Made by a program: the position numbers and the translations under genes. DNA of 64,000 bases from Escherichia coli. Its GTDB lineage: Bacteria; Pseudomonadota; Gammaproteobacteria; Enterobacterales; Enterobacteriaceae. Location of the stretch: NCBI RefSeq assembly GCF_044324785.1, contig NZ_CP172127.1; one strand, written 5' to 3'. Below, in pieces: positions 3,032-56,767 of the stretch; within the stretch, counting starts at the first letter, position 1, and the number at the start of each line of letters is the position of its first letter. The notes beneath the pieces were generated by a model. The model made no database searches, had not been told where the DNA came from, and was given only the letters and a program-made list of their open reading frames with translations.

Positions 3032-3125
3032 TGCCTTCGCTCAGGGTGCCGGTCTGGCACCCTGACTTGCAACTCCCGCCGAAATCCTGCAAAGTCTGCC
3101 TGCAAGTCTGACAGGGCAACTATTT

Positions 3126-3695
3126 ATGAAACGACTCATTGTAGGCATCAGCGGTGCCAGTGGCGCGATTTATGGCGTGCGTTTATTACAGGTTCTGCGC
3201 GATGTCACAGATATCGAAACGCATCTGGTAATGAGCCAGGCGGCGCGCCAGACCTTATCTCTTGAAACGGATTTTTCCCTGCGCGAAGTGCAGGCATTAG
3301 CCGATGTGACGCACGATGCGCGCGATATTGCTGCCAGCATTTCTTCCGGTTCTTTCCAGACACTGGGGATGGTGATTTTACCCTGTTCAATCAAAACCCT
3401 GTCCGGCATTGTCCATAGCTATACTGATGGCTTACTGACCCGTGCGGCAGATGTGGTGCTGAAAGAGCGTCGCCCGCTGGTGCTCTGCGTGCGTGAAACA
3501 CCATTGCACTTAGGCCATCTGCGTTTAATGACCCAGGCGGCAGAAATCGGTGCGGTGATTATGCCTCCCGTTCCGGCGTTTTATCATCGCCCGCAATCCC
3601 TTGATGATGTGATAAATCAGACGGTTAACCGTGTACTCGATCAATTCGCCATAACGCTTCCTGAAGATCTCTTTGCCCGCTGGCAGGGCGCATAA
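3126..3695 (+). CDS. ubiX: flavin prenyltransferase UbiX
   Basis: 189 aa; N-terminus MKRLIVGISGASGAIYGVRLLQVL typical of the UbiX/Pad1 flavoprotein family. Confidence 0.93.
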   Translation: MKRLIVGISGASGAIYGVRLLQVLRDVTDIETHLVMSQAARQTLSLETDFSLREVQALADVTHDARDIAASISSGSFQTLGMVILPCSIKTLSGIVHSYTDGLLTRAADVVLKERRPLVLCVRETPLHLGHLRLMTQAAEIGAVIMPPVPAFYHRPQSLDDVINQTVNRVLDQFAITLPEDLFARWQGA

Positions 3696-3703
3696 CCTCA
3701 TTG

Positions 3704-3726
3704 TTGCCCTGTTTCAGGGCAATTTT
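3704..3726 (+). terminator. intrinsic terminator downstream of ubiX (end of the cvpA-purF-ubiX unit)
   Basis: TTGCCCTG-TTT-CAGGGCAA perfect 8-bp stem followed by TTTT. Confidence 0.7.
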
Positions 3727-3876
3727 GCAACCGCGATCAAATCCTCGACATTTTGTTCCTTTCGATGAATCGAAACGCTGCGATTCAACCGCCATACCTG
3801 CTATCTTCAACTTCAGGACAATAATGCAACGTCTTATTAACATATTTAACGTTGAATGTTACTGTTGTCGTAAAGA

Positions 3877-3893
3877 TGGCATAAGACCTGCAT
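3877..3893 (+). promoter_or_regulatory. sigma-54 (-24/-12) type promoter upstream of argT
   Basis: TGGCATAAGACCTGCAT has GG and GC elements spaced as in the TGGCAC-N5-TTGCA consensus, about 70 nt upstream of the argT start; consistent with nitrogen control of argT. Confidence 0.5.
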
Positions 3894-3960
3894 GAAAGAG
3901 CCTGCAAACACACAACACAATACACAACATAAAAAAGCCATTTTCACTTGAGGGTTATGT

Positions 3961-4743
3961 ATGAAGAAGTCGATTCTCGCTCTGTCTTTGTTAGTCGGTC
4001 TCTCCGCAGCGGCTTCCAGCTATGCGGCGCTACCGGAGACGGTACGTATCGGAACCGATACCACCTATGCGCCGTTCTCATCGAAAGATGCCAAAGGTGA
4101 CTTTGTTGGTTTTGATATCGATCTCGGTAACGAGATGTGCAAACGGATGCAGGTGAAATGTACCTGGGTTGCCAGTGACTTTGACGCGCTGATCCCCTCA
4201 CTGAAAGCGAAAAAAATCGACGCCATTATTTCGTCGCTCTCCATTACCGATAAACGTCAGCAGGAGATTGCTTTCTCCGACAAGTTGTACGCCGCAGATT
4301 CTCGTTTGATTGCCGCCAAAGGTTCACCGATTCAGCCAACGCTGGATTCACTGAAAGGTAAACATGTTGGTGTGCTGCAGGGATCAACCCAGGAAGCATA
4401 CGCTAACGAGACCTGGCGTAGCAAAGGCGTGGATGTGGTGGCCTATGCCAACCAGGATTTGGTTTATTCCGATCTGGCTGCAGGACGTCTGGATGCTGCG
4501 TTACAAGATGAAGTTGCTGCCAGTGAAGGATTCCTCAAGCAACCTGCTGGTAAAGATTTCGCCTTTGCTGGCTCATCAGTGAAAGACAAAAAATACTTCG
4601 GTGACGGCACCGGTGTAGGGCTACGTAAAGATGATGCTGAACTGACGGCGGCGTTTAATAAGGCGCTTGGCGAGCTGCGTCAGGACGGTACCTACGACAA
4701 GATGGCGAAAAAGTATTTCGACTTTAATGTCTACGGTGACTGA
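3961..4743 (+). CDS. argT: lysine/arginine/ornithine-binding periplasmic protein
   Basis: 260 aa with signal peptide [22 protein letters not shown]; paralogous to the adjacent hisJ product; type 2 periplasmic binding protein fold. Confidence 0.93.
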
Positions 4744-4963
4744 TACGTCGCAGGGAAACTGTACCTGATGGAATGATCATCATGGTGCACGCCAGGTTTG
4801 TTGCACTATCGTGGTGCATTGAAATGCATACTTAAGCATTTTTAATGAAAAATAATACGTCTAACGGGGCGGGATATTTTGCCTTGATGGTCAATTTTAT
4901 GGCACGATAAGTGTAACAAACCTGTAAATATTCCCTATAAAAAGACCGTCAGTTGAGGACATT

Positions 4964-5746
4964 ATGAAAAAACTGGTGCTATCGCTCTCTCTGGTTCTGG
5001 CCTTCTCCAGCGCAACTGCGGCGTTTGCTGCGATTCCGCAAAACATCCGCATCGGTACCGATCCGACCTATGCGCCATTTGAATCAAAAAATTCACAAGG
5101 CGAACTGGTTGGCTTCGATATCGATCTGGCAAAGGAGTTGTGCAAACGCATCAATACGCAATGTACGTTTGTCGAAAACCCACTGGATGCGTTAATCCCA
5201 TCCTTAAAAGCGAAGAAGATTGACGCCATCATGTCATCGCTTTCCATTACGGAAAAACGTCAGCAAGAAATAGCCTTCACCGACAAACTGTACGCTGCCG
5301 ATTCTCGTCTGGTGGTGGCGAAAAATTCCGACATTCAGCCGACAGTCGAGTCGCTGAAAGGCAAGCGGGTAGGCGTATTGCAGGGCACCACCCAGGAGAC
5401 GTTCGGTAACGAACATTGGGCACCAAAAGGCATTGAAATCGTTTCTTATCAGGGGCAGGACAACATTTATTCTGACCTGACTGCCGGACGTATTGATGCC
5501 GCGTTCCAGGATGAGGTCGCTGCCAGCGAAGGTTTCCTCAAGCAGCCAGTCGGTAAAGATTACAAATTCGGTGGCCCGTCTGTTAAAGATGAAAAACTGT
5601 TTGGCGTAGGGATCGGCATGGGCCTGCGTAAAGAAGATAACGAACTGCGCGAGGCTCTGAACAAAGCCTTTGCCGAAATGCGCGCTGACGGTACTTACGA
5701 GAAATTAGCGAAAAAGTACTTCGATTTTGATGTTTATGGTGGTTAA
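4964..5746 (+). CDS. hisJ: histidine-binding periplasmic protein
   Basis: 260 aa with signal peptide [22 protein letters not shown]; followed by hisQMP permease and ATPase genes. Confidence 0.95.
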
Positions 5747-48415: not shown

Positions 48416-50086
48416 ATGTCAGTAAGCGCATTTAACCGACGCTGGGCGGCGGTCATTCTGGAAGCATTAACGCGTCACGGCGTCAGACACATCTGTATCG
48501 CCCCTGGCTCGCGTTCTACACCGTTAACGTTAGCGGCGGCGGAGAATTCCGCATTCATTCACCACACCCATTTCGATGAGCGTGGACTGGGGCATCTGGC
48601 GTTGGGGCTGGCGAAAGTCAGCAAGCAGCCGGTGGCGGTGATTGTGACCTCCGGCACGGCGGTAGCAAATCTCTATCCGGCACTGATTGAAGCCGGGTTA
48701 ACCGGAGAAAAACTGATCCTGTTAACCGCCGATCGCCCGCCGGAGCTGATTGACTGCGGCGCGAATCAGGCGATTCGTCAGCCGGGAATGTTCGCCTCTC
48801 ACCCCACGCACAGTATTTCACTGCCGCGCCCGACCCAGGATATCCCCGCACGTTGGCTGGTTTCTACCATCGACCACGCTCTCGGTACGCTTCATGCTGG
48901 TGGAGTCCATATCAACTGCCCGTTTGCTGAACCGCTGTATGGCGAAATGGACGACACCGGGCTTAGCTGGCAACAGCGGCTGGGCGACTGGTGGCAGGAC
49001 GACAAACCGTGGCTGCGTGAAGCGCCTCGTCTGGAAAGTGAAAAACAGCGCGACTGGTTCTTCTGGCGGCAAAAGCGCGGCGTGGTGGTTGCCGGGCGCA
49101 TGAGTGCGGAAGAGGGCAAAAAAGTTGCACTGTGGGCGCAAACTCTTGGCTGGCCGCTGATTGGCGACGTGCTGTCGCAAACCGGACAGCCGCTGCCGTG
49201 TGCCGATCTCTGGTTAGGCAATGCCAAAGCGACCAGCGAACTGCAACAGGCGCAAATTGTGGTGCAACTGGGAAGCAGCCTGACGGGCAAACGGCTCCTG
49301 CAATGGCAGGCAAGCTGTGAACCCGAAGAGTACTGGATTGTTGATGACATTGAAGGGCGACTTGATCCGGCACACCATCGCGGACGTCGCTTAATTGCCA
49401 ATATTGCCGACTGGCTGGAGCAACATCCGGCAGAAAAACGCCAGCCCTGGTGCGTTGAAATCCCGCGCCTGGCGGAACAGGCAATGCAGGCGGTTATTGC
49501 CCGTCGCGATGCGTTTGGCGAAGCGCAACTGGCGCATCGCATCAGCGACTATCTGCCTGAACAGGGTCAATTGTTTGTTGGTAACAGCCTGGTGGTACGT
49601 CTGATTGATGCGCTTTCGCAACTTCCGGCAGGTTACCCGGTGTACAGCAACCGTGGTGCCAGCGGTATCGACGGGCTGCTCTCGACCGCCGCTGGCGTTC
49701 AGCGGGCCAGTGGCAAACCGACGCTGGCGATTGTGGGCGATCTCTCAGCACTTTACGATCTCAACGCGCTGGCGTTATTACGTCAGGTTTCCGCGCCGCT
49801 GGTATTAATTGTGGTGAACAACAATGGCGGGCAAATTTTCTCGCTGTTGCCAACGCCGAAAAACGAGCGCGAGCGTTTCTATCTGATGCCGCAAAACGTC
49901 CATTTTGAGCACGCCGCCGCGATGTTCGAGCTGAAATATCATCGTCCGCAAAACTGGCAGGAACTTGAAACGGCACTTGCCGACGCCTGGCGCACGCCGA
50001 CCACCACGGTAATTGAAATGGTGGTTAACGACACCGATGGTGCGCAAACCCTCCAGCAACTGCTGGCGCAGGTAAGCCAATTATGA
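48416..50086 (+). CDS. menD: SEPHCHC synthase (thiamine diphosphate-dependent)
   Basis: 556 aa from ATG at 48416 ([34 protein letters not shown]); the 673-aa track ORF is an in-frame upstream extension overlapping menF. Confidence 0.93.
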
Positions 50087-50841
50087 TCCTGCACGCGCAG
50101 GCAAAACACGGTAAACCAGGTTTACCCTGGCTGGTGTTTTTGCACGGTTTTTCCGGCGATTGCCATGAATGGCAAGAAGTGGGCGAGGCGTTTGCCGACT
50201 ACTCACGGTTGTATGTTGATCTCCCAGGTCACGGTGGTTCGGCGGCGATTCGCGTCGATGGATTTGATGATGTCACCGGCTTACTGCGCAAAACTCTGGT
50301 TAGTTACAACATCCTTAACTTCTGGCTGGTGGGGTACTCGCTTGGCGGACGGGTGGCGATGATGGCGGCTTGCCAGGAGCTGGCGGGGCTTTGTGGAGTT
50401 GTTGTCGAAGGCGGGCATCCTGGGTTGCAAAATGCTGAACAACGCACGGAACGTCAGCGTTCCGATCGCCAATGGGCGCAGCGTTTTCGCACAGAACCGT
50501 TAACGGCGGTATTTGCCGACTGGTATCAACAGCCTGTTTTTGCCTCGCTCAATGACGATCAACGCCGGGAGCTGGTGGCGCTGCGCAGCAACAATAATGG
50601 CGCAACTCTTGCCGCGATGCTGGAGGCGACTTCTCTCGCCGTTCAGCCTGATTTACGTGCTAACCTTAGCGCCCGCACATTTGCGTTTTATTATTTATGT
50701 GGTGAACGTGACAGCAAATTCCGCGCCCTGGCGGCGGAACTGGCTGCCGAATGCCATGTCATTCCTCGCGCCGGACATAACGCGCATCGGGAAAATCCCG
50801 CTGGCGTAATCGCAAGTCTGGCGCAGATCTTGCGTTTCTGA
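50083..50841 (+). CDS. menH: SHCHC synthase (alpha/beta hydrolase)
   Basis: 252 aa; nucleophile elbow GYSLGG; 4-nt overlap with menD. Confidence 0.92.
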
Positions 50842-55118: not shown

Positions 55119-56767
55119 TTGGGCCGATACTGAATCAGCACCAGACGCTCCTGACGATCGATGGCATCTGCGGGCGGAATGGCGAGACTGTTGATATCTT
55201 CATCGCGGTCAACCGAAAGCACGAGTGTAATAATCCCCTCCTGACGATGTTGATTAAGCCAGTTTGCGAACTCATCACCGCTGACAAATCTCCCTTTCGC
55301 ATCCGGATAATTAAGGCCGTATTTCAACTCACCTGTCTGACGATACATGATGATGTCATCGCGTTGCAGGCTCCATGCCAGACCTGCGGCAACGCCCACG
55401 CTGTCAGTAAGAATATAGCGGCTTGGCTGCAGTGATTCTTGTGTCATCTCGACAAAAAATTGCGGATGTTTTCCTTCCAGGACTCTGTCAGGAATTGAAA
55501 ATCCTACCAGCAACGTCAGCCCCAGCGGGCAAAGCGCGGCAAAAGACCAGGTCTTTTCGACGTTTGTTAAGGTGTACCAGCCGAAAAATGCCCATAGCGA
55601 AAAAATCGACCAGGCACAGAAGACTTTATAGCTCTCGAAGGTTTGCCACACCGGCGTGTTCATTGGTCCCCAGGGGGAGACCACAAACGTAGCAATAATG
55701 CCAGTGACGCCAAAAGCGATGTTAATCCAGCCATTAATCCGCAACGCCAGAGGATTATTTTTTGCTGCCAGCAAAGCGTAATGCGCCATCAGCATTGCCA
55801 GAGGTGCAAAGCAGGAAAGAATATAGGTGGGCAATTTGCCTTTGGCGACGGAGAAAAACAGCAGCGGCATTACCGCCCAGCTCAATAAATAGACGGTTGC
55901 GGAATGCTTGCGGTTTTTCCAGCCTGTGTACAGTGCTCCGGGGAGTAATCCCAGCCACGGCAGGCTACCGGCAATGATGACCGGCAAGTAGTACCAGAAC
56001 GGAGCTCTATGCTGAGCATCATCCATTGCAAAGCGTTGAATATGCTCAACCCAGAAAAAATAGTGCCAGAAGTCAGGCTCCCGCTGCGCTATCGCCAGTC
56101 CCCAGGGGAGAACCGTCAGTACGCAACTGATAACCGCCAGCCAGCCGTAAATAAAGAGATCTTTCCAGCGTTTTTGCGTCGCCACCCATGGAAGCACGCT
56201 TAATACCGGCACGGCAAGGGCGAGAAAACCTTTGGTCATCACCCCCATGCCGCAGGTGATTCCCAGCAGTAAAAATCCGGCGCTTTTGCCTTTCCACGTC
56301 TGTGCCTGCATTGCCAGCCAGAAGCTGCACATTCCCGCCACCAGCCAGAATGCAATAAACGGATCGAGCACGGCATAAGTGCCGATGGCATAGACAATAA
56401 ACAATGAGAGATAAATTACTGTGGCGAGTAGAGCCAGACGTTTATCGCGCCATAAGCGCAGAGTAAACCAGGTCACCAGCGCGGCAGTTAACAGGGTCGC
56501 AAAGATAACGCCTGCCCGCACACCAAAGTTATTCGCGCCAAATAGCCATTGCCCAATGCTGTTAATCCAGTATCCGGCAATGGGTTTTTCGAAATAACGT
56601 AGCCCTAACAGATGGGGCACAATCCAGTCGCCGGATGCCAGCATTTCTCGACTGATTTCCGCATAACGCGTTTCATCGGGTTGCCATAGCAGACGTGTGC
56701 TGATCGGTAACAGGTAATAGCAGGCAATAAACGCGAAGAGGCCGATAAGGTAACGTACCGATTTCAT
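55115..56767 (-). CDS. arnT: undecaprenyl phosphate-alpha-L-Ara4N transferase (lipid A modification)
   Basis: 550 aa polytopic glycosyltransferase starting [42 protein letters not shown]. Confidence 0.95.

Follow-up and report, generated by a model that had tools for sequence, protein, structure and literature searches.

This locus raises the question of whether the short element TGGCAT-N5-CTGCAT (TGGCATAAGACCTGCAT, 3877-3893, plus strand), which lies upstream of argT, is a genuine promoter for the sigma-54 (RpoN) form of RNA polymerase and, if so, how it would be activated. An initial annotation, made from the letters alone, had proposed both a sigma-54 promoter and nitrogen control through NtrC. 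In the window, i.e., the whole 64-kb stretch of DNA that was analysed, the element is intergenic and in sense orientation, 84 nt from the argT ATG, and the two dinucleotides on which the proposal was based are in place: the -24 GG occupies 3878-3879 and the -12 GC occupies 3890-3891, with the first G of each 12 nt apart, which is the consensus spacing for sigma-54 (TGGCAC-N5-TTGCW class). The identity assigned to the downstream gene also holds, as the open reading frame at 3961-4743 (+) matches the NCBIfam equivalog NF011586 (ArgT, the lysine/arginine/ornithine-binding protein) with 583 bits against a cut-off of 440, and carries the argT annotation in 5,423 complete E. coli genomes. It lies between ubiX (3126-3695) and hisJ (4964-5746) in the Escherichia order cvpA-purF-ubiX-argT-hisJQMP, the plus strand of the window corresponding to the minus strand of K-12.

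The 1.7-kb ubiX-argT region is matched in 5,423 of the 5,426 complete E. coli genomes at an identity of at most 98.6%, which points to a somewhat divergent Escherichia lineage as the origin of the window. From this identity, taken over 3100-4800, the source of the window is probably a cryptic-clade Escherichia and not typical E. coli, and the ArgT proteins nearest to that of the window are those of Escherichia MOD1-EC7003 and E1V33. Between 3776 and 3960 a single base differs from K-12 MG1655 (A in the window and C in K-12, at 3872), so that data obtained in K-12 transfer directly to the window. The loci of K-12 (b2310, argTp) and Salmonella Typhimurium (STM2355, argTr) have a core identical to that of the window, ATGGCATAAGACCTGCA(TG), in the same ubiX-argT-hisJQMP setting and equally far from the ATG, and as judged from this comparison their promoter and that of the window are the same element in close relatives.

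Published experiments on the identical sequence demonstrate binding of sigma-54 both in vivo and in vitro. In K-12, ATGGCATAAGACCTGCA is the intergenic sigma-54 ChIP-seq site OS22, 12-fold above threshold and with a predicted start 58 nt from argT; validated sites of the same data set lose their sigma-54 ChIP signal in a delta-rpoN strain, and the status of K-12 argTp in EcoCyc in 2015 was predicted, not confirmed (Bonocora et al. 2015). In Salmonella, the same 18-mer, TGGCATAAGACCTGCATG upstream of STM2355 (argT), is a ChIP-chip site, and argT expression on microarrays is 3.5-fold higher in the wild type than in delta-rpoN cells when a promiscuous activator is present; that study treats argT as an NtrC/sigma-54 operon already known, one of four in Salmonella for which sigma-54 dependence had been established by experiment (Samuels et al. 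2013). RpoN holoenzyme binds the ubiX-argT spacer in vitro, with gSELEX peaks of 61% and 55% (Shimada et al. 2021), and the segment 3705-3902 has been cloned as 'argTp' and has served in metabolic engineering as a promoter of the sigma-54 type (PMC7045595). Occupancy by NtrC is documented as well: in nitrogen-starved cells a ChIP-seq peak covers the argT promoter, a weak one (5.4-fold) that was added by visual inspection (Brown et al. 2014). Together with reviews, which describe argT as transcribed from a sigma-54 promoter and activated by NtrC, this peak supports the nitrogen control put forward in the initial annotation. Our literature search, whose coverage did not extend to the primary Salmonella papers, found no argT start site mapped under nitrogen limitation and nothing useful on control of argT by ArgP.

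The element is conserved far beyond Escherichia. Among 80 argT loci from several dozen genera of Enterobacteriaceae (Escherichia, Citrobacter, Salmonella, Enterobacter, Klebsiella, Raoultella, Kosakonia and others), TGGCAY-N5-NTGCA is present in all 80, at 66-105 nt before the ATG. In the alignment of these loci, the TGGCA and TGCA columns, which are the bases contacted by sigma-54, are at least 97% identical, while the flanks drift (mean identity 0.49 over the 10 bases upstream and 0.58 over the 9 bases downstream) and the spacer positions vary. Judged by alignment, this is the pattern expected of recognition by sigma-54 and is unlike that of an RNA helix. It is this conservation, along with the published binding data, that settles the question: we assign a probability of about 0.93 to the reading of 3877-3893 as argTp, the sigma-54 promoter of argT, whose core as a feature is 3876-3893 (+), ATGGCATAAGACCTGCAT. 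The proposal of the initial annotation is thus borne out by the weight matrix scores given below, by conservation in 80 of 80 loci, by ChIP-seq in K-12, by ChIP-chip in Salmonella and by gSELEX of the identical sequence. The promoter is already known and of textbook standing, it is not a new feature, and nothing in its analysis alters current understanding. It nevertheless illustrates that a true sigma-54 promoter can be found by a reader given only sequence, and it provides a fixed point, nitrogen control over basic amino acid uptake, in the regulatory map of the window.

Upstream of argTp, the same alignment of 80 loci delimits four conserved blocks, at 3723-3756, 3776-3785, 3797-3807 and 3825-3851, in which column identity is at least 85-97% and around which the adjoining sequence drifts; the last of them contains the direct repeat TTAAC-N4-TTAAC. 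Within these blocks no NtrC match above chance was present, and comparison by eye with the motifs of IHF, ArgR, Lrp, Nac/LysR-type regulators and NtrC yielded none that was convincing. Two open reading frames that overlap the region, a TTG frame at 3701-3895 (+) and an ATG frame at 3625-3843 (-), were provisionally set aside as coding explanations, the conservation consisting of short blocks between variable stretches.

The argT gene is also served by a sigma-70 promoter that overlaps the sigma-54 site. Counted from the start of this promoter, which is active in E. coli, the sigma-54 motif spans +6 to +22 (Schaefer et al. 2015), which places the sigma-70 start near 3871. Hexamers read by hand against these coordinates give a promoter at 3837-3865 (+), with a -35 element TTAACA at 3837-3842, a 17-bp spacer and an extended -10 element TGn-TACTGT at 3857-3865. 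They score 8/12 with the extended -10, below the threshold of 9/12 at which a scan for sigma-70 promoters over 3600-5000 found none; the -35 block is kept across genera and the -10 is not. The sigma-54 start is predicted at 3903 (+), 58 nt before the ATG, by the rule of Bonocora et al. (2015), which adds 19 bp to the centre of the motif (3884 in the window). Because of the overlapping sigma-70 promoter, rpoN-independent expression of argT is expected; the initial annotation had taken such expression as grounds for rejecting a sigma-54 promoter, an argument that is invalid at a gene also driven by a sigma-70 promoter just upstream.

The initial annotation had pointed to 3730-3860 as the place to look for NtrC binding sites. 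A consensus scan (TGCACCAnnnTGGTGCA, scored out of 14) did not bear this out: no match in 3730-3860 was better than chance, and the best over 3696-3960 reached 9/14, with 0.8 such matches expected in shuffled sequence. Further upstream, a perfect dyad, TGCCCTGTTTCAGGGCA, occupies 3705-3721; its centre lies at about -190 relative to the predicted start. Its agreement with the NtrC consensus is 8/14 in the window, but sequences at this offset score as high as 13/14 in Klebsiella, Raoultella and others, so that the position can be regarded as homologous to their NtrC-like sites. In the window this dyad is probably the terminator hairpin of ubiX: the predicted folding energy of the RNA is -14.1 kcal/mol (z = -3.8), and UUUUG comes after it. 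The cloning primer for 'argTp' in PMC7045595 begins exactly at 3705. A second position, 3674-3690, lies at about -221 inside the 3' end of ubiX and is degenerate in the window (7/14); at this offset 45 of 81 sequences (the 80 loci plus the window) score at least 10/14, with a maximum of 13/14 and a family consensus of TGCACTAACAGAGTGCA. Most other genera, including Enterobacter, Klebsiella and Raoultella, have two NtrC-like dyads at the fixed offsets of about -190 and -221, 31 bp apart. Such pairs about 31 bp apart recall the enhancer of glnA, with its tandem promoters glnAp1 and glnAp2. The two systems differ in that the dyads upstream of argT are more distant (-190/-221) and, in Escherichia, degenerate, and in that the sigma-54 site of argT lies within the region transcribed from the sigma-70 promoter.

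The strongest NtrC sites of the window lie elsewhere. The spacer between argT and hisJ contains a pair at 4773-4789 (ATGATCATCATGGTGCA, 10/14) and 4802-4818 (TGCACTATCGTGGTGCA, 13/14, the highest score anywhere in the window). The two sites are situated before hisJ, about 0.9 kb downstream of argTp. Their GGTGCA half-sites are kept across genera, and the pair coincides with a 23.7-fold NtrC peak in ChIP-seq that was attributed to hisJQMP (Brown et al. 2014). NtrC could reach argTp in Escherichia from the degenerate upstream dyads, by looping from this hisJ-proximal pair, or from solution. A more specific scenario, which we consider doubtful, is that argTp of Escherichia, Salmonella and Citrobacter lost the canonical upstream enhancer and instead relies on looping from the pair 0.9 kb downstream, or on the four conserved blocks; if looping were true, a single enhancer at 4773-4818 would serve two transcription units. 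Any action of these two sites at argTp is conjectural, and the DNA sites proposed here for NtrC at this promoter are putative. Because the upstream enhancer of related genera is degenerate here, the location of the NtrC sites behind activation of argTp in Escherichia is the one aspect of the locus that retains modest interest.

The same spacer also holds a sigma-54-like element, ATGGCACGATAAGTGTA, at 4899-4915 (+), 49 nt before the hisJ ATG, from whose predicted start the NtrC pair is centred at about -116 and -145. Its TGGCAC is invariant in all genera examined, and its -12 part is degenerate in Enterobacter, TGCA in Citrobacter and TGTA in Escherichia; among the searchable tables and supplements of published sigma-54 ChIP-seq work on E. 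coli, none lists the element. The NtrC site at 4802-4818 adjoins the -35 of the published sigma-70 hisJ promoter TTGAAA-16-TTTAAT (4819-4824 and 4841-4846), an arrangement that resembles the NtrC sites overlapping glnAp1.

Among the alternatives to a nitrogen-regulated promoter, the one that survives best is that the site in Escherichia acts mainly as a roadblock, in which bound sigma-54 holoenzyme obstructs the sigma-70 argT promoter, and that initiation activated by NtrC is minor, the upstream enhancer having decayed. Published data give this reading substance: in nitrogen-replete E. coli, argT RNA in the presence of rpoN is 23% of that in its absence, and sigma-54 lowers sigma-70 initiation at argT in vitro (Schaefer et al. 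2015), which demonstrates interference with sigma-70 transcription on the identical sequence. Indeed, argT is itself a published example of the Class II repressive sigma-54 sites of that study, along with mdfA and topA, in that its sigma-54 motif follows closely on an active sigma-70 start and has a C at -12; in these features the window sequence shows no difference. Repression at argT is attributed to the sigma-54 holoenzyme, as opposed to glnA, where NtrC covers the -35 element. The position of the motif at +6 to +22, the degenerate Escherichia counterparts (7/14 and 8/14) of dyads that are strong in other genera, and the weak NtrC ChIP signal all fit with such a role. Against its being the main one, argT is listed among the NtrC-activated operons, all of which have a sigma-54 peak and most of which rise under nitrogen limitation, and Salmonella, which shares both the 18-mer and the TGCCCTGTTTCAGGGCA dyad, displays rpoN-dependent induction. 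We therefore regard a predominantly repressive site as unlikely; repression and promoter activity are in any case compatible, not exclusive.

Taken as a nitrogen-regulated promoter, argTp would work as follows. Sigma-54 RNA polymerase binds the -24 GG and -12 GC at 3876-3893, where it would wait as a closed complex whatever the conditions. When nitrogen is plentiful, argT is transcribed from the sigma-70 promoter (start ~3871), which lies about 32 bp upstream, and the inactive holoenzyme bound at +6 to +22 lowers the yield of this transcript. Under nitrogen limitation, phosphorylated NtrC would open the complex through ATP hydrolysis, leading to transcription from near 3903 and to more lysine/arginine/ornithine-binding protein for nitrogen scavenging.

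Both transcripts would carry the same C/A-rich leader segment, TGCAAACACACAACACAATACACAAC (3903-3928, +), through which the small RNA GcvB would repress translation. This segment is predicted to pair with nucleotides ~66-92 of GcvB, its G/U-rich R1 region, as a seed target, with a total duplex energy of -57.4 kcal/mol as compared with -33.1 +/- 4.0 in shuffles (~6 sd), and the C/A-rich tract is kept across genera. As a target of GcvB R1, the argT mRNA has been verified in Salmonella; it is counted as conserved in E. coli, and has been recovered as a GcvB target in E. coli interactome data sets.

Since the sigma-70 mRNA includes the motif itself, at +6 to +22, and the adjoining conserved blocks have no assigned ligand, the conservation of the motif might stem from an RNA element, or from the site of another protein within the sigma-70 leader, instead of from sigma-54 recognition. 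This is very improbable, given that conservation falls precisely on TGGCA and TGCA, a constant distance apart with a variable spacer between them, as for sigma-54 and not for a helix, and that direct sigma-54 ChIP, with a signal lost in delta-rpoN at validated sites of the data set, accounts for the conservation.

Motif scores bear on whether the match could have arisen by chance. Weight matrices were built from the sigma-54 ChIP-seq sites tabulated in Bonocora et al. (2015), one from all 134 sites and one from the 41 other intergenic sites of E. coli, with argT excluded. The RpoN matrix scan that the initial annotation had suggested as a check came out in favour of the site: with the 41-site matrix argTp scores 14.93 bits and ranks third among ~128,000 positions of the window, with the 134-site matrix it scores 13.3 bits and ranks eighth, and its score exceeds those of ~30% of the ChIP-verified training sites. 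The pattern TGGCAY-N5-YTGCW occurs four times in the window, as against 0.59 +/- 0.82 in shuffles. Simulations with a Markov-1 model yield 1.3 +/- 1.1 equally strong matches per 64-kb window and, counting the sense strand only, ~0.003 for each upstream region of 265 nt. With ~55 genes in the window, the sequence by itself is therefore suggestive, not decisive. A chance GG-N10-GC match without function is hardly credible all the same, for although about 1.3 matches of this strength are expected per 64 kb and similar scores occur inside genes elsewhere in the window (e.g., at 44018, 50818 and 46490), the bases contacted by sigma-54 are invariant over 80 loci while the flanks vary, and the identical sequence is bound by sigma-54 in vivo and in vitro.

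Other matrix matches that score at least as high as argTp lie at 44018-44034 (+), antisense within elaD, at 50818-50834 (+), in the 3' end of menH, and at 46490-46506, 49646-49662 and 56053-56069 (all -). None of these five is in the published high-stringency sigma-54 ChIP-seq list, so that a high motif score is not enough to identify a promoter. From gene order, the window presumably also includes the yfbV-ackA and cvpA-dedD spacers. The cvpA frame was located at 989-1477, which puts the dedD-cvpA spacer at ~700-990, and no strong sigma-54 matrix match was seen in the latter interval. Weak gSELEX peaks of RpoN holoenzyme have been reported in both of these spacers (Shimada et al. 2021). Finally, CTGGCATGGAGCCTGCA at 55365-55381 (-), which lies in sense orientation inside a frame confirmed as ArnT, is identical to the published intragenic K-12 sigma-54 ChIP-seq site IS28.
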